Shown here: piece after piece, positions 21,386 to 54,273 of the stretch | How positions within the stretch are numbered: position 1 is the first letter of the stretch | Layout: each line of letters starts with the position of its first letter | Virus record (IMG/VR): IMGVR_UViG_2899275550_000002 | Location: 1,930 to 65,929 of that record | Origin: a virus | Taxonomy: Duplodnaviria; Caudoviricetes | Length of the DNA stretch: 64,000 bases | Direction: 5' to 3' (one strand) | Notes under the pieces: generated by a model | Seen by the model: only the letters and a program-made list of their open reading frames with translations | The model's database searches: none | Told to the model about the DNA's origin: nothing | Translations under genes and position numbers: made by a program

Positions 21386-21456
21386 TGGCCCAGCCCCGCG
21401 CCATAGCAACGACATGGGCCGCCACGCGCGGCCCCTTTCGCATGGCGCGGCGATGA

Positions 21457-23052
21457 ATGAGCCGCGATTGGTCCCAGCCCCTGACCGAACCCCTGCCGGC
21501 GCCCAGCACGCCGGAAGAATGGGCCGCCTGCCTGGCAGACCCCTGGTGGCGGATATGCTCGGGCGTCCTCTACAAGATCATGGTCAAGGGCGACGACCAG
21601 GACGACACGGAGATAGGTCAGCTGGAGCCGTTCTTGCCGAACGTCAACCAGCTGCGGTTCCTGCATCGGTTCCACTATCGCAACACCATCCTGAAAGCCC
21701 GGCAGTTGGGCTTCACGACCTTTGCCGCCATCTGGGGGCTGGATCGTGCTTTGTGGACGAAAAACCAACGCTGCGGGATCATCGCGCAGGATCAGGACAC
21801 GGCATCCGCCATCCTGAAGGACAAGGTGCTGCTGGCCTACGAGAACATGCCGCAGCACATCACCGACGCGATGGGGTTCAAGAACCGCACCGCGAAGGAG
21901 CTGCACTTCGCCCACAACAACAGCTCGATGCGCGTGGCCACGTCGATGCGGGGCGGCACCATCCATTTCCTGCACGTCTCGGAGCTGGGCAAGATCAGCG
22001 CCACCTATCCGGCCAAGGCCAAGGAGGTCCAGACGGGATCGCTGCCAGCGGTGCCCGCAGCAGGTATCGCCACGATCGAGTCCACCGCCGAGGGCGCAGA
22101 GGGGCTGTTCTTTGACATGACCAGCCGCGCCGAAGCCCTCGCCATCTCGAACACGCCCCTGAACAAGGGCGATTACAAGTTCCATTTCTTCCCGTGGTTC
22201 ATGGAGCCCGGCTATCGGGCCGACCCTGCGCGCGTGCGGATCAGCCTCAAGCAGCACGAGTACTTCGACAAGCTGGAGGCCGAGACAGGCCACTCGATCG
22301 ATATGCACCAGCGCGCCTGGTATGTGATCAAGCTGGAAGCCGATTTCAGCGGCGACCAGCAGATGATGCAGCAGGAGATGCCCAGCACGCCCGCCGAGGC
22401 GTGGTCGCGCAGCACCGCCGGCACATTCCTGACACCCCAGATCACCGCAGCCCGCGCCGCAGGCCGTATCGGGAAAGTGCCGCACGTCGCATCCCTGCCC
22501 GTCCACACCTTCTGGGACATTGGCGGCAGCGACGGCACCGGCATCTGGATGGGCCAGCAGGTCGGCCTGTCTATGCACATGATCCGCTACCTGGAGGACT
22601 GGAGCAAAGGCTACGCCCACTTCATCAACCAGATCGAGAGCCACGGCTATGTTCTGGGCGATCACTACCTGCCGCACGATGCCGCGGCAGAGCGCCAGGG
22701 CAAGGATGGCCTCTATTCGCCCCTGTCCATGCTGCAAGACCTGCGCCCGCGCTGGCGGTTCCACATCGTGCCCCGCATCCACGACTTCACCGCAGGCATC
22801 ACCATCCTGCGCGAGCGGTTCAACGAGCTGTGGATCGACGCCGAGGGCTGCAAGGAGGGCATCACCCACCTGGAGCTGTACCGCAAGCGGTTTAACACCA
22901 GCACCAAGACCTTCGCAGACGAGCCGCAGAAGCATGACGGCCACTCCGAAGCCCCCGACGCCCTGCGCCAGTGGGCGCAAGGGTTCACCCCCTCCCACGC
23001 AACAGGCGAGCGGAAGAAGCCCGTGCGCCGCAGATCAGGACTGACAGCATGA
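21457..23052 (+). CDS. terL: Terminase large subunit
   Basis: ILKARQLGFTT (Walker A), LHVSE (Walker B), FWDIG and HYLPHDA (RNase H-like nuclease). Confidence 0.95.
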   Translation: MSRDWSQPLTEPLPAPSTPEEWAACLADPWWRICSGVLYKIMVKGDDQDDTEIGQLEPFLPNVNQLRFLHRFHYRNTILKARQLGFTTFAAIWGLDRALWTKNQRCGIIAQDQDTASAILKDKVLLAYENMPQHITDAMGFKNRTAKELHFAHNNSSMRVATSMRGGTIHFLHVSELGKISATYPAKAKEVQTGSLPAVPAAGIATIESTAEGAEGLFFDMTSRAEALAISNTPLNKGDYKFHFFPWFMEPGYRADPARVRISLKQHEYFDKLEAETGHSIDMHQRAWYVIKLEADFSGDQQMMQQEMPSTPAEAWSRSTAGTFLTPQITAARAAGRIGKVPHVASLPVHTFWDIGGSDGTGIWMGQQVGLSMHMIRYLEDWSKGYAHFINQIESHGYVLGDHYLPHDAAAERQGKDGLYSPLSMLQDLRPRWRFHIVPRIHDFTAGITILRERFNELWIDAEGCKEGITHLELYRKRFNTSTKTFADEPQKHDGHSEAPDALRQWAQGFTPSHATGERKKPVRRRSGLTA

Positions 23053-38784: not shown

Positions 38785-40665
38785 ATGAGCTTGGGTAATG
38801 GATTCGCCAGCTTCGTGAACGGCTTTGTCGGCGGGCGCGACACGCGCGACCGCTGGGAGGATCGCAAGGACAGCAAAGAGCGGCAGAAGGTGCTGGACGA
38901 ATATGAGGCCGAGCGTCAGAAGCGCTTGGGCGACATGCACGGCTGGGCGGGCGAACAGCACCAGTGGGCGGGGCAGACGCACCGGTCGCAGATGACCGAT
39001 GCGCAGCAGCGCCAGCGCCTTGCAGACTTGGGCTGGGAGGACACGCAGGCCACCCGGGCCGCGCTGGCCGAGGCCGACGCCGCGGCCTTCGGCGGGATGG
39101 GCGGCGGGATGGGGGCAACCCCGCCCCCGGCGAACCAGCCCGGCCCGATCCAGACCGCAGCGATATCAACGCAAGGCTCGCCCCCCACGCAGGGCGGGAC
39201 GCCGCAGCTGGGCTATGGGGCCGCAGCCGAGGGCATCCCCCGCCCGGCCATGCCGCTGCGCGATCCGGCCACGCAGCCGCAATACAGCCATGGTACCGCC
39301 GCCCCCGTGGTTGCGCCGCAGCGCGCCGCACAGGAGGGCATGGGGGCTGCGCCCGAGGCCGAGGCCGATCCCCTGCTGGTCGAGAACCCCGATGGCACGT
39401 TCACGCCCCTGCGCGGTCCGCGCGATGCCACCGAGCAGATGGCACTGGCCGAGGCCGCCAAGGCTGGCCGCCTCAAGCAGGGCGATGCGTCCGCAGATCG
39501 TCAGGCGCAGGTCGATGCCGCTGGTATGTCCCGGGCGACCGAGAACCCCGTGGCCCGCGCGCTCCGCCTCGATGAAGGCAATGAGCTGGGCGGCGATGGC
39601 ATGGCGACCCGCAACGTCGCGCAGGCCGGAAAGCACCTGAACCGCACGGCAGTGAAGGCTTATGATGCGGTGGGCAATCAGGCGGTGCGCGGCGGCGAGA
39701 CGATCGCGGCGGGCGTCAACGCCATCAGCAGGTGGATGACCGGCGAGGATGCGGTGAGTGCCCCGGAGCGGTTCGACACGCTCAACCGCAATGCCCCCGC
39801 CTTCCCCGACGCGCCTGCGACGGTGCCGAAGGATGCCGACGAGGGCCAGGCCGCAGCGGCGACCGGCGCGGAATCGGCACTAGAGGCCGCCACCAGCACG
39901 CCCGCCGGAGCCGCGGCGATAGAGGCCATGCCGTCCCTGGGCGTCAAGCCGGGCCAGCCCATGACGCCCGCGCAGATCGACCGCGCCGCGCAGACTCACA
40001 TGCAGAGCTATCGCGACAACGGCCTGCCCATCATCACGCGCGAGCTGATGCGCCAGGGCAAGTTCGCGGAGGCCGAGACGCTGCGGACCTTCGTGAACGA
40101 TGCCGCCGCGCAGGACGGGATGAAAGCATGGTCGGGCGCGGTGTTTGCGGCTCTGTCGGGCGACGTGGACACCGCCGCCGCGCGCATGATCGACGCCTAT
40201 AACAGCAGCGGCTATTTCGATGATGGATTCGAGATCGTCAAAGACAAGACGGACCTGATCCGCGACGACGATGGCACGGTCATGGGCCTGCGGCTGACGC
40301 GGCGCAACCAGTCCACAGGTGAGGAAACGACCGAGGAAGGCACCATTGGCGACGTGATCGAGCGTGGCCTGTGGCTGCTGTCGCCCGAGCAGGCGGCGCA
40401 GCAGTATATGGCCCAGCAGCAGGCCATTGCAGTGCGCCTGGCCGAGATGGACGCCGAGCGGCGCGAGCTGGGTGGCGACATTATCAAGGAGCAGGCCAAG
40501 CAGGCGGATGCTAACGCCCTCAAGCTCATCGAGTTGACCGCTGATAGCCTTGGTCAGCCGACGATGACCCTGGAGGAAGCGCGGGCGGCCATAGCGGGCC
40601 AGGGCGCGCCGGAAGAAGGCTCGGCAGAGGACGATGTGCCGATGCTGCGCCGCCCCGAACGGTGA
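38785..40665 (+). CDS. Ejection/internal virion protein
   Basis: 626 aa, GFASFVNGF N-terminus like the preceding gene, Ala/Gln-rich. Confidence 0.75.
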   Translation: MSLGNGFASFVNGFVGGRDTRDRWEDRKDSKERQKVLDEYEAERQKRLGDMHGWAGEQHQWAGQTHRSQMTDAQQRQRLADLGWEDTQATRAALAEADAAAFGGMGGGMGATPPPANQPGPIQTAAISTQGSPPTQGGTPQLGYGAAAEGIPRPAMPLRDPATQPQYSHGTAAPVVAPQRAAQEGMGAAPEAEADPLLVENPDGTFTPLRGPRDATEQMALAEAAKAGRLKQGDASADRQAQVDAAGMSRATENPVARALRLDEGNELGGDGMATRNVAQAGKHLNRTAVKAYDAVGNQAVRGGETIAAGVNAISRWMTGEDAVSAPERFDTLNRNAPAFPDAPATVPKDADEGQAAAATGAESALEAATSTPAGAAAIEAMPSLGVKPGQPMTPAQIDRAAQTHMQSYRDNGLPIITRELMRQGKFAEAETLRTFVNDAAAQDGMKAWSGAVFAALSGDVDTAAARMIDAYNSSGYFDDGFEIVKDKTDLIRDDDGTVMGLRLTRRNQSTGEETTEEGTIGDVIERGLWLLSPEQAAQQYMAQQQAIAVRLAEMDAERRELGGDIIKEQAKQADANALKLIELTADSLGQPTMTLEEARAAIAGQGAPEEGSAEDDVPMLRRPER

Positions 40666-40714
40666 TCCTGCTTGAGTGAAAGCCCCCGCCCATGTCATAA
40701 CGGCAGGGCGGGGA

Positions 40715-40763
40715 CATAGGACATGGGCTCGCTGATCCACACCCTCGGAGAAGCCCCATGTCC
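40715..40763 (+). promoter_or_regulatory. DarB leader RNA switch
   Basis: CAT-AGGAC-ATG hairpin; GGACATGGG (40719-40727) is complementary to CCCATGTCC (40755-40763), which covers the ATG. Confidence 0.7.
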
Positions 40764-43700
40764 GGCAATACGCCCGCTGCCCGCGCAATTGCGCAGATCG
40801 ACGCCCTCTATGGTGCGCAGACCGCCCCCCAATCTACCGACATCAAGGCGATTTCGCGCAAGACGCGCGTGCCGGTCAATGTGCTGGTGGCGCTGGACGA
40901 GGGCCGCGGCGATCTGAAGGCGGTCGAGGCTCATGCCACCCGGATCGCGCAGGCGGTCGAGGCGGGCAAGCCGATCGAGGATGCCATCTATGAGGTTGCG
41001 GGCGACGAGGGGCGCGGGCGGGCTATCCTGGACACCGCCTATGATCTGGCAGACCGGATGGAGCCCCCTGCCCCCGCCGCCGCCGACAGCGGCAATGATG
41101 GGCGCGTGGGTATCGCGGAAGGCGTGGCCGGGATCGCGCGGGATTTCGGATCGGGGATGCTGCGCGCGGGCGGTGGTGCGCTGGAAGCGGCCGGCGTGGT
41201 GGCCGACGAGGCCGTACGCGGCGCGTTCAGCGATGATCCGTCCCAGGCAACGCCCCTGCGCGGAGCAGGCCGGGCGGCGGGCGACGTGGCGCGCGGCGCG
41301 GGCGAAGGCATCGCGGCGGGGCGCAGCGAGGATTACCAGCGTGTGCGCGAGGGCACGCAGCCGGGCGGCAGTCTGGCGGACCCGTCCAGTTGGTCCCTTG
41401 GCGACGATCCGTCAATGCTGGGCCTTGCGGGCCTGACTGCCGAGGGTCTGGGTTCCATGGCCCCCGTGGTGGCCGCTGGCGTCCTGACCAAGAGCCCGGC
41501 GCTGGCCGGTTCGATCGTCGGCGGCCTGATGGGCGGCGGCGAGGGCGTCGAGACGGGCCGCCAGTTCGTCCAGGACGCGGCCAAGACCCTGGATGAGAAC
41601 GGGCGCCCGGTCATCGAGGGACTGCCGGAATACCAGAAGTTGCGCGAGGCGGGCACCAGCCACGACCGCGCCGTGGCCGATCTGACGCGCCGGGCCGAGA
41701 ACGAGGCCGGGTTCCGGCAGGGCATGGTGGCGGGCCTGGGCGGCGCTGCGACCAACCGCATCCTGATGGGCGCTGACGGCTGGCTTGGGCGCGGCGGGCG
41801 GCTGGCGCGCGCTGGCAAGAAGGGCGCGGCGTCGGCGCTGGAGGAGGGCGCGCAGGAAACCGCAGAGGGCGTGGCCGGGGGCCTGGGCATCGAGGCGGCC
41901 ACCGGGGCCAATGTCGACCTGATGGAGGACAGCTTCGGTGATTTCGTCGCGGGCTCGCTGGCCGGTGGCGCAATGGGCGCAGGCGCGGGCGCATTGGGGC
42001 GCGGAACGGATCGACCGGACCCGCAGCCCGACACCCCGCCTGCCCCGCCCGAGCGGCTGGCCCTGCCCGCGCCCGAGAACGGCGGCACGATCTTTGGCCG
42101 CCCACCTTCCGCCGACATCAACCCGGCGATGCCCTTGGGCCTGCCGTCTCCCACCAACGGCGGAACCATTATCCCCCCGGCACCGGCCCCGCGCCAGCCG
42201 GGCGAGCCAGAGCCGATCACGGTTCGGCAGACCCCCGATTTAGCCGGGCCGTCTCCTGACGCGCCCGCACCCTTGGTCCCGGCTGGCGGCAGCAGCCTGG
42301 ATCAGACCGCCGCGCCTACCCTTTCCTCCTCCCTCGGGGCGGGCGCGGCGGTTCCTGATGCCGGAATGGGTATCATGCCCGTTCCCCCGGTTGCCCCGCC
42401 TGCCGGGCCAGTCGAAGCGATCGCACAGAGCCTTGCGGCGTCGATTCCGGCGCCGGTGGCCGAACCCGCCCCCCGGTTCCCCGATCAGAAGCCGGGCGCT
42501 ACGGTCCTGCTGGGAAGCCCGGAAGGCGCGAACGAGAATGCGGTGTTCCTGCGCGAGACGCCCGAGGGCGCGCTGGTGCGGATTCAGGGCCAGGAGGTCG
42601 AGCTGACGCCCGAGGCGTTCGACGCGGCCCGCAATCAGGCCGAGGTGAACCAGAACCGCGAGGAAACCCCGCGGGGCGATCTGGGCGGCAACTCGGTGGC
42701 GGCATCGGTCGGCGCCAAGAAGCGCACCCCCATTGCCCTGTCGGTCGAGGAAGAATTTGCCCGGCTGAACCCGGAGCAGGCCCGCAAGCGCCTCGACGGG
42801 CTGACGGCACAAGCCAAGCAGCGCGGCTGGGATGCCCGCCGCCGGAACCTGCGCACCATCCTGGAGGGGCGCATTGCACTCGGAGGACCGGCCAATGTGG
42901 AACCCACAAGCGCAGAAGATGGGCCCGAGGGCGGGCCTGCCCCCGCTGGGGTGGATGATGTGCGCGCGGACAGCGGCGAAGGAGCTGCAGCGCGCGGGGT
43001 TCCTGACCAGGAAGGAGCGCAAGCGCCTGGTGGCATGGATCGAGAACCCGGAGAGGGAGCAACCCGACCCGAGCCTGACGGCGGTGCTGTGGGCGGTCTG
43101 GATGTGGCAGGCGACACCGGGAAGCTGGGCGGTTCACTGACCGCAGCCCGCGCGGCCGGGCTGATCACGCACACCACCAAGAAGGGCAAGGCCAAGACCG
43201 GCTATGTGCTGCAAGGCGTGACCAAGGCCGAGGCCGACGCGATCGACCCCTATTCGTTCAAGAAGGACGGCGGCGTGTTCGTAAACGCCGAGCGGGCCGA
43301 TGCGTTCGCGCCTGCTGAAAACGCAGCCAAATCCAACCCGGAGGTTCTCACAGTTGGTGTAGACAAACAGAAGCCCCCCCGTGTAAAAAGGGACACGCGG
43401 GAGGCCTCGAATGACAACGCACCGAATGTCGAAAACGGTCGAGTACGGAACCTGGCAACGGATGAAAGCCAGATGCCTACGGCCGACGCACAAGGATTAT
43501 CCGACATACGGAGGGGCGGGGATAACGATAGCCCCGGAATGGGTGGACGACTTTCCGGCCTTCCTAGCGGAGGTCGGGCTGAAGCCGAGCCCAATCCACT
43601 CGATCGACCGGATCAAGCCGGAACTGGGCTATCGTCCAGGCAACGTTCGATGGGCGACGCCTCAGCAGCAAGCGGAGAACAGGCCGGGGTTCGTCAAAGA

Positions 43701-46700
43701 CTTGGCGGGCAAAACGGCGATGGAAACAGCCAAAGCGGCGGGGATCGTTCCATCGACCCTGTATCGCAGGCTGGCAGTCGGGATGCCGATGGAGAAGGTG
43801 TTGAGCAACCAGCGCCTTCCAACCGGTCCATATCGGAGGATGCTGACCCACAACGGCGAGTCGCTTCCGCTGAAGGTATGGGCGCGGAAGGTGGGGTTGA
43901 AGCCAACGACACTTCGCGAGAGGCTACGGCGCGGCTGGACGGTCAATCAGGCACTGACGACGCGGGTGTAACAGCCCCCGCCGCTGCCCCACCCCCGACC
44001 GGCGTGGCCGCGGCACTGTCCGACGCCGACCAGGCGCGCATGGCAGAGCTGAAGAATAAGCTGGCCGACCGGCTGCGGAACCAGGCCAACAGCGGCCTCG
44101 ATCCCGAATTGCTGGGCATGGCCGTCGAGCTGACCGGCCTCTATGTGAAAGGCGGCATCCGCAAGTTCGGCGCCATGCTGCGCGATTTCATGGCCGACAC
44201 AGGCCTGACGGCGCGCGAATCCCAACGCTACATGCGCGCGGCCTACAATGACGTGCGCGACAATGCCGATCTGAACGGCGAGGACGTGAGCGCGTTCGAC
44301 ACCGCCGATCAGGTCATGGCCGAAGTCCGCGCCGCGCTGGCCGAGCCCGAGACGGCACCTGTCGAAACAGCCACATCGCAAGAATCGCCCGAAGGTGATA
44401 GCATCGGGCAGGACACTCAACCGGAGGGCGCGCCCGATGATCGAAACAGCACTGATGAAGGCGATGGTCGAGCAAGCCCCGACCGAGGCCCGCAAGATCC
44501 AGAAACGCGGCCCGAACGCGCTGAAGGATCACGTCAGCGCCGTGGTCGAGCGGACGCGGGCCAATCTGGACCCGAACCCGACGCAGGACGATCCGGCGGG
44601 CGACGTGATGATGCGCGAGATGGTGATGGCCGAAGCGATGGCCGAGCTGTCGATGGGCAACGACTAGAGCCAGGCCGAAACCACGTTATCCCCGAGGGCG
44701 GCCTTGCCCTAAAAGGCGGCGACAAGACCCGCGCCCGTGCTGCCGTGAAGGCCATCGAGATCGTGCGCGATCTGGAGCGCGAGGGGCGGCCTGCCACCTA
44801 TAATGAACGTCAGCAGCTCGCCCAATACGGCGGTGCGGGCGTCCTCGCCCCTGCCCTGCCCAACAGCGCGGGCAAGATCAGGATGGAGGACATCGCCGCC
44901 GATCTGGACCACCTGCTGACGCCCGAGGAACGGGCGACCATCGAAAAGACCAGCCAATATGCCTTCTATACGGCTGAACCCGTCCTGCGGAATATGTGGG
45001 CGCTGGCGCAGCGCCTTGGCTTCACCGGCGGCCAGGTGTTCGAGCCCGGTATGGGTGTGGGCGGTTTCGCGGGTACCATGCCCAAGAGCGTGTTCGGCCA
45101 GTATTCCGGCATCGAGCTGGATCATGTCACGGCCAAGATCGCCGCGGCGCTTTACCCGCAGTCGCACATCAAGCACGGCGATTTCATCCAGACCCCCATG
45201 CCGCGGGACTTCTACGACCTAGTGATCGGCAACCCGCCCTTCTCGCAGACCAAGATCACCGCCGACCCCGCCTATCCGCAGGGGTTCATGATCCACGACT
45301 ATTTCTTCGCCAAGAGCCTCGACAGCGTGCGGCCGGGCGGCCTGCTGATGTTCGTGACCAGCGCCGGCACGATGAACAAGCGCAACACCAAGGCCCGCGA
45401 CTATCTGGCCGACCGGGCCGACTTGGTGGGCGCGGTCCGCCTGCCCAACACCGCCTTTGCGGAGAACGGCACGCAGGTCACGACCGACATCATCGTGCTG
45501 CGCAAGCGTCTGGAGGGCGAGGCCGAGGCCAACCCGGCATGGCGCGAATCCACGCTGGTCACATACCCGGATGGCAAGGGTGGCACGGTCGATCTGGCCG
45601 TGAACCGCTATTTCCAGGAGAACCCCGAGATGATCCTTGGGGAGCAGGGTGCATTCGACACGCTGGTCGGCGCCCCCCGGATCGGCGTGCGCCCGCGCGA
45701 GGGTGCGAACCTGGCGCGCGACCTGCGCACCGCCTTGGAGAGCTTTCCCGAGCGCATCATGTCGGCCCCGTCTGCCCTGCAGATGATGGACGGCCCCCGC
45801 GATGCCACCAGCGCCGAGACGAAAACCGGCAGCTATTACCTGAAGGATGGCGAGCTGTGGCAGTTCGACGGACGCGAGGGCAAGCCGGTCCAGCGCAAGG
45901 GCAAGAGCGGCGGCGGGATGACCAAGGGGGATTACGAGCTGATTACCCAGCTGGTGCCCATCAGGAACGCCCTGCGCGCCGTCTATACCGCCGATCTGGC
46001 CGAGACGGATGCCACCGCCGCCCGAGCGGAGCTGAACCGCCTCTATGACGCCTTCGTGGAAAAGAACGGCCCCCTGAACAAGGTCGAGGAAAGCTATCGC
46101 CGCCCGTCCGCTGTTGAGCTGGAAGGGCTGCGCCAGCGTGCGGCCGAGGACGCGCGGTCTGCCGGGCTGGATTTCGACACCGGCAGCTTCGATGCCGGGC
46201 CGCTGATCGAGGCAGAGGCCAGCATGGCCGCCATCGCCCGCGCGCGGCGCGAGGCCTCCCATGAGCCGGGATACCGGGAAGGCACGTTCAACCCCGATGC
46301 CGTGCCCGACAAGGTGATCGAGAAGTTCCCGAACATGGACCCCTTCCGGGGCGATCCCGAATCCTTCCGGCTGCGCGCCATCGAGAAGTTCGACCGGGCA
46401 ACCGGCCAGGCCCGCAAGACCCGCGTGTTCACCGAGAACGCGGTGAAGAAGGCCACCGCGCCCAAGATTAATTCCCCCGAGGATGCACTCCTGCACCAGC
46501 TGGCCGATACCGGGCGGATCGACATCGACCGGATCGCGGAGGCATCGGGATCGACGCCTGAGCGCGTCCGCGCCGAGTTGAAGGGCAAGGTGTTCGAGAA
46601 CCCGGCCACGGGCGAGATGGAGACGCGGACCCGCTACCTTTCGGGCAATGTGCGGCGCAAGCTGGCCGAGGCGCAGGCCGCCATCGCACGCGACATCCGC

Positions 46701-49700
46701 TTTGCCGAGAACGTGGCCGAGTTGGAGAAGGTCATCCCCGACCCGATCCCGCGCAGCGGCATTGTCGTACCCCTGGGCGCGCATTGGTTCGATCATGGCC
46801 TCTATGCTGAGTTCGCCAAGTCGAAAGGGCTGACCCTCAAGGCCGAGTTCAAGCGCGCCCTGGGCCAGTGGATTGTCGATGGCGATAAGAGCAGCGCACC
46901 GGCCAAGAACGAATGGGGCACCGAGGACGTGCCGTTCGCGGAGATGATGCGCCGCGCCATGAACAACAAGCCCATGCGCGTGTCGCGGACGGTGAAGAAC
47001 GCGGATGGCAGCACCACGACCTTTGTGGACGAGGAAGCCACCCAGGCCGCCGCCGACAAGGCAGCCGAGCTGCGCACCGCCTTTGCCGACTGGCTGTGGT
47101 CCGACGAGGCCCGGGCCGAGATGCTGGAGGAACGCTATAACGAGGCGTTTAATGCCGAGGTGGCGCCCGTCTATGATGGTGCCTACCTGACCACGCCGGG
47201 TATCAACGCAGGCTGGACCTGGCGGCCCCACCAGACCGCTGTTGTCGCGCGCATCCTGCAGTCGGGCAGCACCTACATGGCCCATGCGGTCGGCGCCGGT
47301 AAAACCAGCGCCATGATCGGCGCAGGCATGGAGGCCCGCCGCCTCGGGCTGGCACAGCGCCCGTGGTATTCGGTCCCGAACCACATGCTTGTGCAGTTCG
47401 CCACCGAGTTCCAGGAGCAATACCCGCTGGCGAATATCCTGGTTGCGGACGAGAACAACTTCCAGGGCGACCGTCGCCGCCAGTTCGTCGCGGACGCGGC
47501 CAGCGGCGATTACGATGCCGTCATCATCACGCACAGCGCGTTCGAGCTGATCCCGTCCAGCCCCGCCGCCAAGGCCGCTGTGGTCGAGGGGATGCTTGCC
47601 GACCTGCGCGAGCTGATCCAGGACCAGAGCGACAACCCACGCGATCGAGTGCCCGGCCAGGATCAGGCCACCCTGGGCGCGCTGAAATCCGTCGCTGCGG
47701 CCTTGGGCATCAAGGAAGGCAAGAAGGACGCAGGCGATAAGGTCAGCACCGCCAAGAAGATCGCGCAGATGATGGAGCAGGCCGAACAGCGCCTGACCGC
47801 CATGACGCAGGACACCGGCAAGGACGAGGTGTTCACCTTCGATGAGATCGGCGTCGACATGCTGTTCGTGGACGAGGCCCATCTGTTCCGCAAGCTGTCC
47901 TTCGCCACGACCAACGGCAGCATCAAAGGCATCGACCCCAAGGGGTCCAGCATGTCGATGGACCTCTACATCAAATCTCGATCGGTGGACCGGCGCAATC
48001 CGGGCCGCGGGCTGGTGTTCGCCTCGGGAACGCCGATCACCAACACCATGGCCGAGCTGTTCAGCCTGCAGCGTTTCATGCAGCCGCAGGCGTTGGACGA
48101 GCGCAACATCAGCGCCTTCGATGCCTGGGCGGCAACCTTTGGCGAGGTGGCGAGTGAATTGGAGCAGACCCCGGATGGGGGCTACAAGGAGGTCAGCCGG
48201 TTCAGCAAGTTCGTGAACACGCCCGAGCTGTCGTTGATGGTGCGGCAGGTCATGGACATCGTGACCAGCGCCGACCTTGAGAAATACGTCACCCGCCCGC
48301 AGCTGCGCGGCGGCGGGCGCAACCTGGTCGTGATCGAGTCCAGCCCGGAGCAGAAGGCGTTCCAGCGCGACCTGGCCGCTCGCATGAGGGCCATGCAGCA
48401 GCGCAAGGGCAAGCCGAAGCCCGGCGATGACATCATGCTGAACGTGGTGAACGATGGCCGCCTGGCTGCGATCGACATGCGGCTTGTGGACCCCACCGCC
48501 AGCGGCGAGGGCTCGAAGCTTGAGCGGATGATCCAGAATGTCTATCAGGGCTGGAAGGCCGGGGCCGATGCGCCCCTGCATGGCGTGAAGCCGGAAGGCG
48601 GCTATACCGCCAAGCCGGTGATGCGCGGCGCCACCACGCAGATCATCTTTTCCACGCTTGGCGTGAACCCCTCGAAGCACAATCCGAGCTTTTCGGTGCA
48701 TCGCCATATCAAGGCATCACTGATCCGCATGGGCGTGCCCGAGAGCGACATCATCATGGCGGGCGACCTGAAATCGCACCTGGCCAAGCAGCGCGCGTTC
48801 AACGACATGAACGAGGGCAAGCGCCGAATCCTGATCGGGTCCAAGTCGATCTTCACGGGCGTCAACGCGCAGCGCCGCCTGGCGCAAATCCACAACCTCG
48901 ACCCGCTATGGTTCCCCGCCGACGATGAGCAGCGCAACGGGCGCGGCATCCGGCAGGGGAACATGAACCCCGAGATCGCGATCAACGACTATTCGACCAA
49001 AGGCACCTATGACGCGACCATGTGGCAGATGATGGGCCGCAAGGCCGCATTCATCGAGGGCTTCTATCGCGGCGACCCGACCATGCGGGACATGGAGGAT
49101 CTGGGCGAGGCCAGCGCGTTCGAGCAGGCCAAGGCCATGACCACGAGCGACCCGCGCATCCTGCAGCTGACCGAGCTGAAAACCGAGCGCGACAAGCTGC
49201 GCCGCCGGGCGGGGGCCGTGGATACGCAGCGATCCAAGCTGCGCGCGCAGATCAGGTCGGCCATGCGCGGAATCGAGTTCAACCGCGACGAGGCGCGCAA
49301 AGTCGAACCCATCACGGGGGTGATCCCCGATCTTTCGGGCGACAAGTTCAAGATGCGCGTCGGCGCCACCGAGTTCGACAGCCGCAAGGAGGCTGGCGAG
49401 GCGATCATGGCGCGCGTCGAGGCGCTGGCCGAGGCTGGCAAGTCGGTGAGCGAGATTGTCGTCGGCAACATCGGCGGGTTCCCCGTCGAGGCTGACTGGT
49501 CGGAGCTCATGAAAAGCGCCCGCGTGGGCGTCCGTCACAGCCCGGTCATGGACCTGGCCGATGCCGAGTTCAGCGACGATCCCGTGGGCCTTGTCCGCAA
49601 GCTGGAACACGCCCTGAAGAAGCCGGAACGCTATCTGGAGTTCTATCAGGCCGAGGGGGCCAAGGCCGAGCGCCAGGCCGCCGCGCTGCGCGCCCAGCTG

Positions 49701-52700
49701 GAGGGCGTGAAGGAGTTTGCCGACCAGGCTAAGCTGGATGGCCTGGAAACCGAGATTGACACGCTGCAGGCGGCGCTGGTCGCGGATGCGGCGGCGGCCG
49801 AGGCCGAAGGCAATCAGGACGGACAGGTGGATGCCCCGCAGGAGTCCCGCTTCACAGCCGAGCCGGTTGTGAGCCTCACGGGCGACGAGCTGGGGGATTG
49901 GTCGGATATGCGCGACCTAGGCATGAAAGCCGAGGCTTGGTATCGGGAGAACCTTGTCGGCACGACCGTCACGATGGGCCAAACAGGCTGGAAGGTGCAG
50001 TTTGGCCGCGTGGGCTCGAAGAAGTTGGGCGGCCGGAAAGGTGATTTCCTGCTGCGGGCCGTGCCAGCCCTCGCGGCAATGATCGAGCAAGGAACGCTCG
50101 TTTCGAGCCAAGGCGACAGGAAGCGCGGCAACGAACGTCTGAAGTTCCATACCGTCCGGGCGCGTGTCTCGGTCGGCGGAGAGACGCATAATCTGTTCAT
50201 CACCATCCGAGAGGACGGTAATGGCCACTATCACTATGATCTGTCGATGGAGAACGGTGCCGAGGTCAGAAATTCAGGCGCGGCTGGTCGGGTAACTGAA
50301 GCCCGGAGCGGCGGTCTGAACGACCTCGGCACAATCAACATGGAGATCGCGGACAACTCTGTCAACGGCGCTGATCCTGAAATGACCCCTGCTTTTGCGC
50401 GTGCGATCAACGCTGCGGCCCGCGCGGAGCTGGAGAAGATCGGGATTGCCGGTCGTGTCCGGGCCGAGGCCGGGGGCGAGGGCCGCGCGGCTGGCACCTA
50501 TCAGCGCGGCGTCATCCGCATCCTTCGCACCCGCGCAGGCAAGTGGCGGCACACGCTCGATCACGAGATACTGCACGCTCTGCGCGACCCCGAGGCCTGG
50601 AGCGGCGAGGCGGGCCTGTTCACCCGGGCGGAATGGAGCGCCCTGGCGCGGGCGGCGCGGGCCGACAAGGCCGTGCGCGAGCGCGTCGAGGCGGCCTATC
50701 CTGATCTGACCGAGGCCGGGCGCACCGAGGAGATGGTGGCGGAGTTCTATGCCGATTGGGCACAGGGCAACCGTGAGGCCCCTGCCGGGCCGATGGCAAA
50801 TGCCCTGGGCCGCATCCGATCCTTCTTCAATGCCGTGGCGTCCGCGCTGCGCGGCGAGGGGTTCCAGGACGCGGCCACGATCATGCGGCGGATCGCCGGG
50901 GGCGAGGTCGGCGGGCGCGGGCCGGATGGGCCCGGTACCGGGCGCGGCGCGGCGCGCGAGCAGCGTAACATGGATGGCCTGACCAGTGCCCTGCGCGAGG
51001 GTGCCGCCCGGACCCGGAAACGGAGCGGGGTGGCCGCCCGCGCGCTGTTCAGCCGCGAGGCATGGAGCAATTCGCCCGAGGTGTTCAGCAATTTCCTGAC
51101 CGACGCCATGGGCCGCAACCAGCAGTTCAACCTGCTGGGCGCGGTGCCGGGCTATTCCCTGTTCAAGGAGCTGGGCAAGAACCTGTCGGCGGCCCAGACC
51201 TATCTGGGGCTCAAGCAGTCGATGGATGCCGAACGCAACGACTGGCAGGCCCGCGCCGCCGCAGCGGTGGACGAGTGGACCAAGATCGGCCGCAAGGACC
51301 AGGAGGCCAACACCCGCCTCATGGACCTGATGCACGAAAGCACGCTGGCTGGTATCGACCCGAGCAAGACCGACGACTGGCGGCACCCGCACCTGGACAG
51401 CGCGCGGCGCATCGACCGCGCCGATGTTGCCAGCCCCGAGGATCGCGCCTTTGCCGCCCGCGTGGCGCAGGAGATCGCGGACCATGAGGCAACCTATGAC
51501 CGCCTCAAGCGGCAGTTCGACGCGCTGCCGGCCGATTTCCAGTCCCTCTATGGCAAGGTCCGCGACGAATACGCGACTATGGCCGACGCGACCGATCAGG
51601 CCGTGCTGGACAACGTGAAGGTGGCGAACGAGCTGGCACTGAAGCGTGCCCAGAAGAAGCACAAGGACGAGATGCAGCGCATCAAGGACGAGGGGCTGAC
51701 CGGGGCTGCGCGCGACGAGGCCGTCGACCAGGCCGACCGTCGCCTGGCCGCCACCCAGAAGCGGGCGCGGGACAACGGCGCGGCCAGGATGGCAAGTCTG
51801 CGCGCAGCCTTCGAGACGAACCGCCTCAAGGGCCCGTATTTCCCGCTCGCTCGCTTCGGCAGCTATTTCGTCTCCGTGCGGGATGCCGATGGCGCTGTCA
51901 TTTCGTTCAGCCGGTTCGAGAAGAAAGCCCAGCAGGAGGACGAGGTGGCCCGCGCCGAAAAAGAGGGCGCGGCGGAAGGCTGGACCGTCACCCGTGGCGT
52001 CCTGGGCGGCGATGCCGACCTGAAAGGCATGGTGGACCCGCGCTTTGTGAGCGAGGTCGAGGGCATTCTGTCGGAATCGGACGCCAGCCCGGAGACGATG
52101 GACGCGATCTGGCAGCATTGGCTGGAGAGCCTGCCTGACCTGTCGGTGCGCAAGAGCCGGATCCACCGCAAGGGCCGGTCAGGATTCAACAAGGATGCGG
52201 TGCGGGCCTTTTCGTCGGCGATGTTCCACGGCGCGCACAACCTGGCGCGGCTGCGGTATGGCCTGCGCATGGATGATGCCCTGAACGAGGCCGAGGCGCA
52301 GGCCGGGCGTCAGGCTGATCCCGAGCGGGCCGGGTTCGTGGTGCGTGAGATGCGCCAGCGGCACAATTTCACCATGAAGCCGACGAACAACCCGTTGGTG
52401 ACGGCGGGCACGTCGCTCGCCTTCGTCTGGTATCTGGGCATGTCGCCTGCCTCTGCGCTGGTCAACATCAGCCAGACCACCATCTTCGGCGTGCCGATCC
52501 TGCGCACAGCCTTCCCCAAGGCGGGCGTGACGGGAGCCACAAAAGCCCTGGGCAAGGCCGCCGCTGATTTCGGGCGCGGCAAGGGCTGGACCGAGCGCAG
52601 CAAGAACCTGACCGAGGATGAGCGGGCCGCGATCCAGGAAGGCTATCGCCGGGGCACGATCGACAAGACGCAGGCGCATGATCTGGCCGCCGTCGCGGAG

Positions 52701-53942
52701 TCGGGCGTAGCCTACAACCCGACCCGCGAGAAGGTGATGCGGACCATCGGGTTCATGTTCCACCATGCCGAGCGCCTGAACCGTGAGGTGACGTTCCTGG
52801 CAGCCTACCGGCTGGCGCGGGCGGATGGTCGCGATCATGATGCCTCGATCAACGATGCCGCCGACCTGACCTGGCGCACGCATTTCGATTACCAGAACAC
52901 CGCGCGCCCGCGGATGATGCAGGGGGATTTCGAGAAGATCATCTTCACCTTCCGCAATTTCACGGTGAACGCGCTGTATCGCCTATTCCGCGACACGCAC
53001 CAAGCGTTCGCGGGCGCCACGGCAGAGGAACGGCGCGAGGCACGCGGCCAGCTGGTCGGCGTCAGCCTGTCGATGATGGCCCATGCCGGGATCAAGGGCG
53101 TCTGGGGCTATGGCCTGTTGATGGCCCTGCTGGGCGCGGTGATGCCGGGCGGCGATGGCGACGACATCGAGGACTGGATTCAGGACGCGCTTCTGATGGA
53201 GGGCGATGATCTGGGCACGGCCGCATGGAATTGGGCGATGGGCATGGTCCTGCACGGCGTTCCCGGAACGGTCACAGGTACCAGCCTGACGGAACGGCTT
53301 GGGATGCCAAACCTGTGGTTCCGCCCCCCTCGCGAGGGCACCGAAGGCCAGGACGTTTGGGCGCACTACCTGGAGCAGTTTGCGGGGCCTGTCGTGGGTA
53401 TCGGCGGGCAGTTCATGTCGGGCCTGTCGATGATCGGGGATGCCTGGTCGGAAGGGAACGGCGACAACCTGATGCGCGGCGCTGAGAAGCTGGTGCCCAA
53501 TTTCGTGAGCAACGGCGTCATCAAGCCCGCCCGGTTCATGACCTATGGAGCGAACAGCTATTATGGCGATCCGCTGATGGAGGTTGGGCCCCTCGATGCG
53601 GTGCGTACCGCCATGGGGTTCACGCCTGCCGAGCTGGCCGAGCGGTATCAGATCAACGCGCGCCTCAAGGCCCGCGAGCGGGAGATTACGGGCCGCCGCG
53701 CCCGCATCCACCGGCTGATCGGAAAGGCCATGCAGGATGGGGGCGAGATCCCGGCGCGCGTCATGCGCGACATGCAGGAGTTCAACCGCGAGTTCCCCGA
53801 ATACCCGATCACCCGCGACACGATCCGGCAGTCGATCCGCAGCCGAGCGCGGGCGAAGGAGCGCAACGAATTCGGCGTGACGCTTAACAGCAAGCTGAAT
53901 GACCGCCTGCGCGGCGAGATGCCCACGCCGGTCTATAACTGA
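40758..53942 (+). CDS. Giant DarB-like polyvalent protein (N6-MTase + SNF2 helicase + metallopeptidase + PLxRFG domain)
   Basis: FEPGMGVG and GNPPF (about 45040-45245), HAVGAGKT (about 47283), DEAH (about 47871), HEILH (about 50562), PLARFG (about 51843). Confidence 0.92.
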   Translation: MSGNTPAARAIAQIDALYGAQTAPQSTDIKAISRKTRVPVNVLVALDEGRGDLKAVEAHATRIAQAVEAGKPIEDAIYEVAGDEGRGRAILDTAYDLADRMEPPAPAAADSGNDGRVGIAEGVAGIARDFGSGMLRAGGGALEAAGVVADEAVRGAFSDDPSQATPLRGAGRAAGDVARGAGEGIAAGRSEDYQRVREGTQPGGSLADPSSWSLGDDPSMLGLAGLTAEGLGSMAPVVAAGVLTKSPALAGSIVGGLMGGGEGVETGRQFVQDAAKTLDENGRPVIEGLPEYQKLREAGTSHDRAVADLTRRAENEAGFRQGMVAGLGGAATNRILMGADGWLGRGGRLARAGKKGAASALEEGAQETAEGVAGGLGIEAATGANVDLMEDSFGDFVAGSLAGGAMGAGAGALGRGTDRPDPQPDTPPAPPERLALPAPENGGTIFGRPPSADINPAMPLGLPSPTNGGTIIPPAPAPRQPGEPEPITVRQTPDLAGPSPDAPAPLVPAGGSSLDQTAAPTLSSSLGAGAAVPDAGMGIMPVPPVAPPAGPVEAIAQSLAASIPAPVAEPAPRFPDQKPGATVLLGSPEGANENAVFLRETPEGALVRIQGQEVELTPEAFDAARNQAEVNQNREETPRGDLGGNSVAASVGAKKRTPIALSVEEEFARLNPEQARKRLDGLTAQAKQRGWDARRRNLRTILEGRIALGGPANVEPTSAEDGPEGGPAPAGVDDVRADSGEGAAARGVPDQEGAQAPGGMDREPGEGATRPEPDGGAVGGLDVAGDTGKLGGSLTAARAAGLITHTTKKGKAKTGYVLQGVTKAEADAIDPYSFKKDGGVFVNAERADAFAPAENAAKSNPEVLTVGVDKQKPPRVKRDTREASNDNAPNVENGRVRNLATDESQMPTADAQGLSDIRRGGDNDSPGMGGRLSGLPSGGRAEAEPNPLDRPDQAGTGLSSRQRSMGDASAASGEQAGVRQRLGGQNGDGNSQSGGDRSIDPVSQAGSRDADGEGVEQPAPSNRSISEDADPQRRVASAEGMGAEGGVEANDTSREATARLDGQSGTDDAGVTAPAAAPPPTGVAAALSDADQARMAELKNKLADRLRNQANSGLDPELLGMAVELTGLYVKGGIRKFGAMLRDFMADTGLTARESQRYMRAAYNDVRDNADLNGEDVSAFDTADQVMAEVRAALAEPETAPVETATSQESPEGDSIGQDTQPEGAPDDRNSTDEGDGRASPDRGPQDPETRPERAEGSRQRRGRADAGQSGPEPDAGRSGGRRDDARDGDGRSDGRAVDGQRLEPGRNHVIPEGGLALKGGDKTRARAAVKAIEIVRDLEREGRPATYNERQQLAQYGGAGVLAPALPNSAGKIRMEDIAADLDHLLTPEERATIEKTSQYAFYTAEPVLRNMWALAQRLGFTGGQVFEPGMGVGGFAGTMPKSVFGQYSGIELDHVTAKIAAALYPQSHIKHGDFIQTPMPRDFYDLVIGNPPFSQTKITADPAYPQGFMIHDYFFAKSLDSVRPGGLLMFVTSAGTMNKRNTKARDYLADRADLVGAVRLPNTAFAENGTQVTTDIIVLRKRLEGEAEANPAWRESTLVTYPDGKGGTVDLAVNRYFQENPEMILGEQGAFDTLVGAPRIGVRPREGANLARDLRTALESFPERIMSAPSALQMMDGPRDATSAETKTGSYYLKDGELWQFDGREGKPVQRKGKSGGGMTKGDYELITQLVPIRNALRAVYTADLAETDATAARAELNRLYDAFVEKNGPLNKVEESYRRPSAVELEGLRQRAAEDARSAGLDFDTGSFDAGPLIEAEASMAAIARARREASHEPGYREGTFNPDAVPDKVIEKFPNMDPFRGDPESFRLRAIEKFDRATGQARKTRVFTENAVKKATAPKINSPEDALLHQLADTGRIDIDRIAEASGSTPERVRAELKGKVFENPATGEMETRTRYLSGNVRRKLAEAQAAIARDIRFAENVAELEKVIPDPIPRSGIVVPLGAHWFDHGLYAEFAKSKGLTLKAEFKRALGQWIVDGDKSSAPAKNEWGTEDVPFAEMMRRAMNNKPMRVSRTVKNADGSTTTFVDEEATQAAADKAAELRTAFADWLWSDEARAEMLEERYNEAFNAEVAPVYDGAYLTTPGINAGWTWRPHQTAVVARILQSGSTYMAHAVGAGKTSAMIGAGMEARRLGLAQRPWYSVPNHMLVQFATEFQEQYPLANILVADENNFQGDRRRQFVADAASGDYDAVIITHSAFELIPSSPAAKAAVVEGMLADLRELIQDQSDNPRDRVPGQDQATLGALKSVAAALGIKEGKKDAGDKVSTAKKIAQMMEQAEQRLTAMTQDTGKDEVFTFDEIGVDMLFVDEAHLFRKLSFATTNGSIKGIDPKGSSMSMDLYIKSRSVDRRNPGRGLVFASGTPITNTMAELFSLQRFMQPQALDERNISAFDAWAATFGEVASELEQTPDGGYKEVSRFSKFVNTPELSLMVRQVMDIVTSADLEKYVTRPQLRGGGRNLVVIESSPEQKAFQRDLAARMRAMQQRKGKPKPGDDIMLNVVNDGRLAAIDMRLVDPTASGEGSKLERMIQNVYQGWKAGADAPLHGVKPEGGYTAKPVMRGATTQIIFSTLGVNPSKHNPSFSVHRHIKASLIRMGVPESDIIMAGDLKSHLAKQRAFNDMNEGKRRILIGSKSIFTGVNAQRRLAQIHNLDPLWFPADDEQRNGRGIRQGNMNPEIAINDYSTKGTYDATMWQMMGRKAAFIEGFYRGDPTMRDMEDLGEASAFEQAKAMTTSDPRILQLTELKTERDKLRRRAGAVDTQRSKLRAQIRSAMRGIEFNRDEARKVEPITGVIPDLSGDKFKMRVGATEFDSRKEAGEAIMARVEALAEAGKSVSEIVVGNIGGFPVEADWSELMKSARVGVRHSPVMDLADAEFSDDPVGLVRKLEHALKKPERYLEFYQAEGAKAERQAAALRAQLEGVKEFADQAKLDGLETEIDTLQAALVADAAAAEAEGNQDGQVDAPQESRFTAEPVVSLTGDELGDWSDMRDLGMKAEAWYRENLVGTTVTMGQTGWKVQFGRVGSKKLGGRKGDFLLRAVPALAAMIEQGTLVSSQGDRKRGNERLKFHTVRARVSVGGETHNLFITIREDGNGHYHYDLSMENGAEVRNSGAAGRVTEARSGGLNDLGTINMEIADNSVNGADPEMTPAFARAINAAARAELEKIGIAGRVRAEAGGEGRAAGTYQRGVIRILRTRAGKWRHTLDHEILHALRDPEAWSGEAGLFTRAEWSALARAARADKAVRERVEAAYPDLTEAGRTEEMVAEFYADWAQGNREAPAGPMANALGRIRSFFNAVASALRGEGFQDAATIMRRIAGGEVGGRGPDGPGTGRGAAREQRNMDGLTSALREGAARTRKRSGVAARALFSREAWSNSPEVFSNFLTDAMGRNQQFNLLGAVPGYSLFKELGKNLSAAQTYLGLKQSMDAERNDWQARAAAAVDEWTKIGRKDQEANTRLMDLMHESTLAGIDPSKTDDWRHPHLDSARRIDRADVASPEDRAFAARVAQEIADHEATYDRLKRQFDALPADFQSLYGKVRDEYATMADATDQAVLDNVKVANELALKRAQKKHKDEMQRIKDEGLTGAARDEAVDQADRRLAATQKRARDNGAARMASLRAAFETNRLKGPYFPLARFGSYFVSVRDADGAVISFSRFEKKAQQEDEVARAEKEGAAEGWTVTRGVLGGDADLKGMVDPRFVSEVEGILSESDASPETMDAIWQHWLESLPDLSVRKSRIHRKGRSGFNKDAVRAFSSAMFHGAHNLARLRYGLRMDDALNEAEAQAGRQADPERAGFVVREMRQRHNFTMKPTNNPLVTAGTSLAFVWYLGMSPASALVNISQTTIFGVPILRTAFPKAGVTGATKALGKAAADFGRGKGWTERSKNLTEDERAAIQEGYRRGTIDKTQAHDLAAVAESGVAYNPTREKVMRTIGFMFHHAERLNREVTFLAAYRLARADGRDHDASINDAADLTWRTHFDYQNTARPRMMQGDFEKIIFTFRNFTVNALYRLFRDTHQAFAGATAEERREARGQLVGVSLSMMAHAGIKGVWGYGLLMALLGAVMPGGDGDDIEDWIQDALLMEGDDLGTAAWNWAMGMVLHGVPGTVTGTSLTERLGMPNLWFRPPREGTEGQDVWAHYLEQFAGPVVGIGGQFMSGLSMIGDAWSEGNGDNLMRGAEKLVPNFVSNGVIKPARFMTYGANSYYGDPLMEVGPLDAVRTAMGFTPAELAERYQINARLKAREREITGRRARIHRLIGKAMQDGGEIPARVMRDMQEFNREFPEYPITRDTIRQSIRSRARAKERNEFGVTLNSKLNDRLRGEMPTPVYN
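42895..43140 (+). CDS. Small gene nested in the +1 frame of the DarB-like ORF
   Basis: GGAGG at 42882, 8 nt before ATG; 81-aa Trp-rich helical product; the DarB frame here reads as low-complexity linker. Confidence 0.5.
   Translation: MWNPQAQKMGPRAGLPPLGWMMCARTAAKELQRAGFLTRKERKRLVAWIENPEREQPDPSLTAVLWAVWMWQATPGSWAVH
43411..43971 (+). CDS. HNH homing endonuclease nested in the +1 frame of the DarB-like ORF
   Basis: YGTWQRMKARC, YGGAGITI, SIDRI...GYRPGNVRWAT...QAEN; two C-terminal HTH-like repeats; GGGAGG SD; lower GC. Confidence 0.88.
   Translation: MTTHRMSKTVEYGTWQRMKARCLRPTHKDYPTYGGAGITIAPEWVDDFPAFLAEVGLKPSPIHSIDRIKPELGYRPGNVRWATPQQQAENRPGFVKDLAGKTAMETAKAAGIVPSTLYRRLAVGMPMEKVLSNQRLPTGPYRRMLTHNGESLPLKVWARKVGLKPTTLRERLRRGWTVNQALTTRV
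44437..44667 (+). CDS. Small gene nested in the +1 frame of the DarB-like ORF
   Basis: GGAGGG at 44423, 8 nt before ATG; 76-aa helical product (MIETALMKAMVEQAP...). Confidence 0.55.
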   Translation: MIETALMKAMVEQAPTEARKIQKRGPNALKDHVSAVVERTRANLDPNPTQDDPAGDVMMREMVMAEAMAELSMGND

Positions 53943-53986
53943 CGCTGGCGCGACATGGGGGTGATCTGTTAGATTGCCCCCATCCG

Positions 53987-54033
53987 CTCGCACAGGACGT
54001 GACGAGGCCCCACCGATCAGGAGCCCCACGTCC
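53987..54033 (+). promoter_or_regulatory. Leader RNA switch of the second tail module
   Basis: CTCG-CAC-AGGAC-GTG-(A)-CGAG hairpin; GGACGTG (53995-54001) is complementary to CACGTCC (54027-54033). Confidence 0.75.
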
Positions 54034-54273
54034 ATGGCCGATTACCCCGATATCCTCGTTGGTCCCGATTACGTCGATCTGCCCGTGGCAGACGAGCCGA
54101 CCGTCATCTACGTGGACGGCGATGCGCGCATCACGTCACACAGCGCGCCCGCAGGAGCGACCCAGGGCATCCCGCTCAAGGCGGGCAATCTCTATCCACT
54201 GAGCGCCGACAACGCCTTCAAGATTAAATCCGACCAGGGCACCCCTGTCACCGTGGTTCGGGCCACGGCCTGA
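54034..54273 (+). CDS. Small beta-rich structural protein
   Basis: CAGGAG SD; 79 aa; GIPLKAG motif. Confidence 0.75.
   Translation: MADYPDILVGPDYVDLPVADEPTVIYVDGDARITSHSAPAGATQGIPLKAGNLYPLSADNAFKIKSDQGTPVTVVRATA

Follow-up and report, generated by a model that had tools for sequence, protein, structure and literature searches.

A start-codon-burying stem in the leader of the giant DarB-like gene of a Bcep22-like prophage: a candidate translational switch for a phage CsrA-like protein

In phage Mu, the Com protein binds the mom mRNA beside a stem-loop in which the mom start codon lies, and thereby activates the translation of this toxic DNA-modification gene. The 5'-terminal stabiliser hairpins of the ompA leader and the T7 gene 10 leader leave the Shine-Dalgarno (SD) sequence as well as the AUG free. 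In E. coli ymdA, CsrA binds to the 5' side of a hairpin, opens this SD-sequestering structure, and activates translation (PMC7492729), and an activation of similar kind by CsrA has been described for hmsE of Y. pestis (PMC10294631). The respective binding sites are typified by the CsrB repeat CAGGA(U/A/C)G and by the SELEX core ACA..GGA..GU (PMC7652899). Phages also carry csrA genes, which have been catalogued (PMC7366521, PMC8450108), and in Bcep22-like phages the gene has been annotated as a "CsrA-like regulator" or called a moron (PMC9144972); in this literature such phage genes are treated as accessory and their role is given as unknown (PMC9144972, PMC7366521, PMC8450108). Our literature search yielded no paper that names phage late-mRNA leaders as targets of phage csrA genes.

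The locus analyzed here is the leader of a giant DarB-like gene. As in ymdA, the 5' arm of a hairpin in which the ribosome start is hidden carries a site with GGA (the box at 40715-40725 overlaps the arm at 40719-40727), a protein of the CsrA family is available, and the predicted outcome is translational activation. Unlike in ymdA, the protein would be a divergent phage-encoded homolog without an Arg44 equivalent in a host without CsrA, not only the SD but also the AUG and codon 2 are hidden in the hairpin, which is far more stable (approximately -25 kcal/mol), and one box is common to four late genes. As for Com and mom, a small phage-encoded RNA-binding protein is proposed to open a start-codon-burying hairpin, whereby the stem-loop contains the start codon of a DNA modification/anti-restriction gene. 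In contrast to Mu, this genome has no Com-type zinc ribbon, so that the candidate comes from the CsrA family, and the device is also found on capsid and lysis genes and is thus not specific to a toxic gene. With the ompA and T7 gene 10 stabilisers the locus shares a stable stem-loop in the vicinity of the 5' end predicted for a strongly expressed phage message; here, however, the stem-loop pairs both the SD and the AUG.

The window, by which we mean the whole stretch of 64,000 nucleotides of viral DNA that was analyzed, is embedded in a contig of 202.7 kb. Its capsid protein is 51-54% identical to the capsids of Bcep22, JC1, DC1, GP4, and PEp14, and judging from these similarities the element is an integrated Bcep22-like podophage (prophage). 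The giant gene is flanked by virion genes. Its product carries the Pfam domains N6_Mtase, Eco57I, SNF2-rel, Helicase_C, LPD3, and LPD39 and shows 38% identity over 1332 aa to gp75 of Bcep22 ("DarB-like antirestriction") as well as 25.8% identity to darB of phage P7 over 52% of the MTase-helicase part (E = 1e-19). By domain content and identity we regard it as a DarB-like anti-restriction or large polyvalent virion protein, which combines an N6-adenine methyltransferase and a helicase in one protein. Among its relatives (P0003-P0025, L004-L013), which range from 2500 to 5657 aa in length (5100 aa for P0003 from Paracoccus sp. NSM), the N-terminal part of approximately 400 aa and LPD39 are common and the middle domains are swapped, whereby some relatives carry the MTase-helicase part and others ART-PolyVal, LPD1, MuF_C, PBECR3, or LPD5. 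On this domain comparison, the giant protein appears as a modular cargo protein on a constant N-terminal part.

A preliminary description of this DNA had claimed that a stem of 9 bp in the leader of the giant gene buries the AUG itself together with the second codon. This could be confirmed. The two arms (Table 1) are exact reverse complements that form nine Watson-Crick pairs around a loop of 27 nt, and the ATG within the 3' arm is the first start codon of the 4394-aa ORF, with codon 2 (TCC) also inside the helix. The minimum free energy (MFE) of the 59-nt region 40712-40770 is -24.7 kcal/mol (z = -3.1), which was equalled by 1 of 200 shuffles, and the 141-nt region 40660-40800 gave z = -4.85, equalled by none of 200. 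In the fold of the predicted transcript (40707-40790) all nine pairs reach probabilities of 0.97-1.0, and the AUG is paired with p = 1.0. Also the SD sequence GGAG is not free in the loop, since in the predicted fold its GGA pairs with the UCC at 40736-40738 in an inner helix, and AUG and SD GGA are thus both paired (p = 0.95-1.0). The opening energy of the initiation region of the giant gene, 23.2 kcal/mol, lies at the top of a range obtained with a crude gene caller that makes spurious opposite-strand calls in GC-rich DNA, and keeping the box single-stranded in this leader was computed to cost approximately 15 kcal/mol. By chance, 0.21% of the window positions hold a triplet under a 9-bp perfect helix with the partner at most 60 nt upstream, and approximately 0.13 such helices would be expected over about 60 gene starts. 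On its own, i.e., without paralogs and orthologs, the stem is only suggestive evidence; it becomes solid because the motif recurs and is conserved in orthologs.

Table 1. Positions of the features discussed in the text, given in window coordinates.
Feature	Position	Strand	Basis or remark
CsrA-like gene P0026, 76 aa, candidate trans factor	27443..27673	+	Directly before capsid leader; Pfam, family profile
Paralogous leader of the major capsid gene (phrog_334)	27682..27739	+	Box at 27682; 7-bp arm ends at AUG 27737
Stop codon of upstream virion structural gene (ORF 38785..40665, P0002)	40663..40665	+	phrog_9667 "virion structural protein"
GCTTGAG block (40670-40676) with -35-like element TTGAGT (40672-40677)	40670..40677	+	Conserved in orthologs
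Upstream hairpin, arms 40684-40691 and 40706-40713	40684..40713	+	MFE structure of 40660-40800
-10-like block TGTCATAAC	40693..40701	+	Conserved block, in loop of upstream hairpin
Leader box CATAGGACATG, giant-gene copy of CAYAGGAYRTG	40715..40725	+	Common to four late leaders; resembles CsrA site
5' arm of AUG-burying stem, GGACAUGGG (GGACATGGG as DNA)	40719..40727	+	Sequence, folding
SD sequence GGAG	40747..40750	+	7 nt 5' of AUG; sequence, folding
3' arm of AUG-burying stem, CCCAUGUCC (CCCATGTCC as DNA)	40755..40763	+	Holds AUG (40758-40760) and codon 2 UCC (40761-40763)
Gene of 4394-aa DarB-like polyvalent protein	40758..53942	+	Pfam; identity to Bcep22 gp75 and P7 darB
Paralogous leader of 79-aa gene after the giant gene	53991..54036	+	AUG at 54034
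Paralogous leader of 126-aa membrane (holin-like) lysis-module gene	60079..60124	+	AUG at 60122

Other structures and starts in this region were considered and rejected. A 3-bp mini-hairpin, which had been proposed as the alternative conformation, is unstable alone (+2.2 kcal/mol) and was ruled out as an intrinsic second state. The ATG at 40723, which opens a 64-aa ORF in another frame, was discarded as alternative start, since its sole SD-like sequence (AGGA) lies only 1 nt before it and the N-termini of the homologs align at Met 40758. A third copy of the arm, CCCATGTC at 40689-40696, does not qualify as an anti-sequestor, as it is not conserved in four orthologous loci (L004-L007) and the MFE structure retains both hairpins. 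No terminator-like site that would indicate an intrinsic terminator or attenuator was found in 40400-41000, and the stem is followed by coding sequence and no U-run. Searches with Rfam 15 matched no family at gathering score in the whole window, the sole match in 40600-40850 being a chance snoRNA (E = 2.3). Elsewhere in the window, another 9-bp perfect helix over an ATG triplet occurs at 21404-21442, just 5' of the terminase large-subunit ORF (21457..23052).

Upstream of the stem, an alignment of 11 orthologous regions between the stop at 40665 and the AUG revealed four conserved blocks, namely GCTTGAG, TGTCATAAC, the box CATAGGACATG, and the ATG. GCTTGAG is kept in 10 of the 11 leaders at a fixed distance of 17-18 nt from the -10-like block. 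A strict sigma-70 promoter scan of 40400-41000 called no promoter; to go by the conserved blocks only, GCTTGAG and TGTCATAAC would constitute one, in which case the message would start near 40706-40709, approximately 12 nt before the stem. Formation of the upstream hairpin would be limited to RNA that reads through from the gene upstream. Its arms differ in sequence among orthologs and stay complementary (judged by eye, no formal count), and no U-run follows. Hairpins with an extended -10-like element in the loop (TGnTAnnnT or TGTCATAAC) precede leaders at 40684-40713, 53952-53985, and 60059-60075, and hairpins of this kind, with arms that are complementary by eye, also occur downstream of the giant gene in L004-L013 and in Bcep22 (L023). 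In Bcep22 the hairpin arms are one repeated sequence (GGTGCG.../...CGCACC) that is found at many late intergenic sites. The -10-holding hairpin may serve to stabilise the 3' end of the upstream message while overlapping the next promoter, or it may have another role.

The stem had also been assigned to a family of four leaders, and this assignment was borne out. The box CAYAGGAYRTG (CAYAGGAYRUG in RNA) is present in four copies in intergenic leaders on the + strand, at 27682, 40715, 53991, and 60079, with a complementary arm recurring before the capsid, giant, post-giant, and lysis genes. The four leaders follow a common plan, in which the box is followed by a loop with an AGGAG or GGAG SD and by a complementary arm that ends at or over the AUG, and their whole-leader MFEs range from -22.5 to -24.7 kcal/mol. 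The spacing of the arms is 22 to 34 nt (own count). Within the whole genome of 3.96 Mb there are 102 relaxed matches to the box, and an exact 7-nt complement at most 64 nt downstream was found for 3 of the 102, all of which are these leaders; the fourth leader of the set pairs with one G.U. Differences between the paralogs are compensatory, as for GGAUGUG/CACAUCC versus GGACGUG/CACGUCC. The giant-gene stem had been described as the strongest of the four. It is indeed the longest uninterrupted Watson-Crick helix, but the arms of the lysis leader form the stronger duplex (-20.6 compared to -18.4 kcal/mol; post-giant -14.0, capsid -12.6). The order of arm strength runs opposite to the expected copy number, for which there are four leaders only. 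In the loop of the capsid leader there is an inner hairpin (27695-27722), the sequence of which is conserved with the capsid leaders of two distant relatives (L031, L032). The suggestion that the giant gene of 13 kb is locked on account of a toxic product had to be abandoned, as the same device is found on the major capsid, 79-aa, and lysis genes and the DarB-like genes of Bcep22 and PEp14 lack such a leader.

A search for homologs of the N-terminus of the giant protein led to ten loci (L004-L013) with conserved gene order. In 200 genomes of the same bacterial family the N-terminus gave one weak match only, and a viral contig collection yielded no relative of the giant N-terminus or of the upstream protein. 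The box is present in all ten orthologous giant-gene leaders, and in each of their MFE structures the AUG is paired at least in part, whereby three pairing registers are used. The near clade (L004, L005, L006, L007) keeps the helix of the window, with a G.U in L006 where the box reads G. In the far clade (L009-L013) it is mostly the 5' half of the box that pairs with a sequence ending in the AUG, and an extra helix sequesters an SD of the GGGGU type; in L010, L012, and L013 CAUAGGA pairs with UCCUAUG. In L008, CGUGG pairs with CCAUG. The preliminary observation on the AUG thus extends to the orthologs, in which the burial is conserved by different base pairs. The post-giant leader was likewise found at 10 of 10 loci and shows compensatory changes, e.g., GGAUG/CAUCC and GGAAG/CUUCC. 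Over 24 non-redundant leaders, cognate arms pair with a mean of -16.2 kcal/mol versus -12.8 kcal/mol for non-cognate arms, and none of 20,000 permutations was as low; this result also holds after removal of duplicates. Owing to several G.U pairs, pairing is stronger in the sense strand (mean -16.2 kcal/mol) than in the antisense strand (-15.0 kcal/mol), the difference amounting to 2 to 5 kcal/mol in L006, L007, and Bcep22. As the arms co-vary and the sense strand pairs better, the helix is a selected feature at the RNA level. Read as DNA, the inverted repeat could represent two operator half-sites or a late-promoter element, for which the conservation of the box as sequence and the -35-like and -10-like blocks just upstream would speak. 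However, the four window leaders differ in the spacing of their arms, orthologs use shifted pairing registers, the arms retain complementarity and not sequence, only in the sense strand do several of the pairs read G.U, and the distance from the -10-like block to the box ranges from 9 to 20 nt (own count, window leaders). We consider such a DNA-level function highly improbable.

The two arms differ in how they are conserved. The 5' arm is kept as sequence, the 3' arm shifts its register to remain complementary, and the residues that precede the helix (GCACA or GCAUA) are conserved though they are often unpaired. From the alignments, a conserved 5' arm together with an adapting 3' arm would be the pattern expected of a protein-bound box. 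It might also be that the leaders act in cis only: a 5' stem-loop would guard the late messages from decay and set a fixed low initiation rate without any trans factor, the conservation of the box would have some other cause, and host RNAs would be the targets of the neighbouring CsrA-like gene, which corresponds to the "moron" view. This would agree with the capsid hairpins of PEp14 and SopranoGao, which are homologous and, in the manner of a simple 5' stabiliser, are located upstream of an SD that is free, with arm strengths that rise from the high-copy capsid over the giant to the lysis gene as in fixed tuning (four leaders only), and with the treatment of the phage csrA gene as accessory and of unknown role (PMC9144972, PMC8450108). 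A hairpin for stability or tuning, however, needs no conserved 5' arm, whereas the box is kept in four unrelated genes as well as in phages that infect alpha-, beta-, and gammaproteobacteria. Furthermore, the conserved pre-helix residues, the co-occurrence of the box with the CsrA-like gene, and a host without a CsrA network into which an accessory CsrA could plug argue against it, and we regard a function in cis alone as unlikely.

The candidate for a trans-acting factor is P0026, whose gene adjoins a scaffold-like gene on one side and the capsid leader on the other. P0026 alone scores 22 bits on the Pfam CsrA model PF02599, which is below the cut-off of 27. A profile of its 13-member family matches RsmE (2jpp) with E = 1.2e-8 and E. 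coli CsrA with approximately 4e-7 over the whole beta-strand core, and PF02599 is matched by 13 of the 13 family members. On the strength of this profile, P0026 is classified as a divergent protein of the CsrA family. In the host genome (100% complete) there is no PF02599 match above the cut-off, P0026 itself being the best match; the host is without canonical CsrA. For E. coli CsrA, Arg44 is required for RNA binding. P0026 and its close relatives have Phe at the equivalent position, which is variable in the family as a whole, with Arg only in L020 and L021. A search of the whole genome for the Com-type zinc ribbon PF10122 gave a best score of 14.7 bits versus a cut-off of 22.9, and this match lies outside the prophage.

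The position of the gene is shared with other phages. A CsrA-like gene lies directly 5' of the capsid leader here and in L017, L031, L032, Bcep22, DC1, PEp14, and SopranoGao, in GP4 one small gene is inserted between the two, and six prophages from the same bacterial family have equivalent small ORFs before the capsid gene. The prophage therefore has in common with other Bcep22-like podophages the gene order scaffold, CsrA-like gene, leader, and capsid as well as the same box family, and it differs from them in that the alphaproteobacterial lineage draws the giant DarB-like gene into the leader set and in that the near-clade helix runs into the coding sequence (AUG and codon 2). Bcep22, PBC5, and Atu_ph08 have both the CsrA-like gene and a box leader. 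By contrast, the Stx phage P27 and the Vibrio phage 1.205.O, which belong to the same capsid family, have neither box nor CsrA-like gene and only a gap of 23-24 nt before the capsid gene. In the phages sampled, box and CsrA-like gene thus occur together or are both absent, in a sample that is small and confounded by relatedness. The gp75 gene of Bcep22 has a different leader without the box, and the DarB-like gene of PEp14 starts 9 nt after its neighbour and has no such leader, but in the cultured Sinorhizobium phage PBC5 a box leader precedes the DarB-like gene, with the 3' arm and the AUG buried. The inclusion of the giant gene thus characterizes the alphaproteobacterial lineage. In the PBC5 record (NC_003324.1, L038) the DarB-like gene is annotated as two CDS (gp21, gp22) with a gap of 1.6 kb in between, and the head genes are on the strand opposite to the other virion genes, which may be an old assembly or annotation problem. 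In Atu_ph08 the annotated GTG start of the capsid gene (L027:1262) sits inside the box; the true start is probably an ATG 33 nt downstream, which is buried by the box in an 8-bp helix.

As to the box itself, the capsid, post-giant, and lysis copies contain an exact CAGGAUG or CAGGACG, and the giant-gene copy reads UAGGACA, in which the GGA is present and two flanking positions are off the CsrB consensus, making it the most deviant copy in the window. The box core is GGA in Bcep22, GP4, and DC1, UGA in PEp14 (L024), PBC5 (L038), and Atu_ph08 (L027), and AGA in SopranoGao (L028) and L008; L033:32114 is also among the relatives with a box reading UGA or AGA instead of GGA. Thus, canonical CsrA specificity cannot hold throughout the family. 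PEp14 and SopranoGao have enterobacterial hosts with their own CsrA, and a non-GGA box could avoid cross-talk with the host protein. This is not the whole story, because PBC5 and Atu_ph08 infect alphaproteobacteria. It may also be that the non-GGA box reflects an altered specificity of the phage protein.

Based on these data, we propose that the stem is a default OFF state, which would be opened when the phage CsrA-like protein binds the box, so that translation is switched on; we give this reading a probability of roughly 45%. In this model, the stem would represent a box-type 5' leader in its closed, non-translatable form; leaders of this type are carried by four late messages, which encode the capsid, the giant DarB-like protein, the virion module after it, and lysis. 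P0026 would be made from the head operon and would bind the box as it leaves the RNA polymerase, approximately 30 nt before the complementary arm is made, and capture of the box would keep the initiation region open for translation, in a manner like E. coli CsrA at ymdA. The transcription start, the binding of P0026 to the box, and an activating rather than repressing effect are what we infer here; the four leaders are probably RNA targets of the phage CsrA-like protein. A box-binding opener that acts in trans is what the 5' arm kept as sequence, the conserved pre-helix residues, and the lock on the capsid gene would point to. The capsid gene carries the same lock and needs heavy translation, and therefore the stems must open late in infection, which favours activation over a permanent brake. 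Since approximately 15 kcal/mol are needed to hold the box open, an opening at equilibrium is doubtful and co-transcriptional capture would be needed. Of the activation model put forward in the preliminary description, the trans factor has thus become credible with a phage CsrA-family protein and the precedent of ymdA (PMC7492729), but not a simple equilibrium opening. The Phe at the Arg44 position, the UGA and AGA boxes, the cost of opening, and the possibility that a dimer could bridge box and SD and thus repress all weaken the activation model.

The latter possibility amounts to the same RNA and protein with the opposite sign, whereby the CsrA-like protein would repress or tune translation as a negative feedback on late proteins, either through a bridge between the box and the GGA of the SD, in the way known from glgC and hag, or by a clamp on the closed hairpin like that of RsmA at psl. 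Repression is the outcome for most known CsrA targets (PMC7652899), and the regulator gene is located in the same late cluster as its candidate targets. Like in classical CsrA/RsmA repression (glgC, B. subtilis hag, RsmE-hcnA, RsmA-psl), the box resembles sites of the CsrB and SELEX type and a second GGA is available in the SD at a distance that a dimer can bridge, the two GGAs being 28 nt apart in the giant leader and SDs of the AGGAG type being present in all four window leaders. Unlike in the classical cases, the box GGA is base-paired in the default fold and not exposed in a hairpin loop, and the AUG region is complementary to the box, a property that is dispensable for repression by bridging. 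In addition, many orthologous giant-gene leaders have an SD of the GGGGU type without GGA, the hairpins are already so stable (-22 to -25 kcal/mol) that a clamp would be unneeded, and the capsid message could not be translated at all if a repressor acted in addition to a closed hairpin. Repression by the CsrA-like protein is thus, in our opinion, a rather improbable outcome.

For an experimental approach to the activation model, the preliminary description had named the giant-gene leader as the best single object and a synonymous change of codon 2 as a means to break the stem. Folding of the leader with UCC changed to AGC leaves a 6-bp helix and the AUG paired with p = 1.0, so that this change would not break the stem. 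The capsid leader is conserved in cultured phages and would serve equally well or better as an object.

A broader and somewhat more tentative reading is that the CsrA-family genes of Bcep22-like phages are dedicated translational activators of late genes, which would have a relaxed NGA specificity and open their leaders co-transcriptionally, and that in the alphaproteobacterial lineage, including PBC5, the controlled set has grown to the giant injected DarB-like protein and the lysis genes. New in this study are the giant-gene leader, its three pairing registers, and the case of PBC5. The giant-gene leader indicates that the controlled set can expand to a giant DarB-like gene and that the helix can extend into the coding sequence. 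If the proposed model is true, it would provide a function for the CsrA-like genes beside the capsid gene in a group of podophages of approximately 60 kb, which comprises phages of Burkholderia, Ralstonia, Erwinia, Klebsiella, Sinorhizobium, and Agrobacterium. It would also represent a natural case of CsrA-type activation by hairpin opening in a host without any Csr system. Late protein synthesis would then be gated after transcription and not by transcription only, by means of a phage-owned translational switch that would control the capsid, the injected anti-restriction protein, the tail module, and lysis together.
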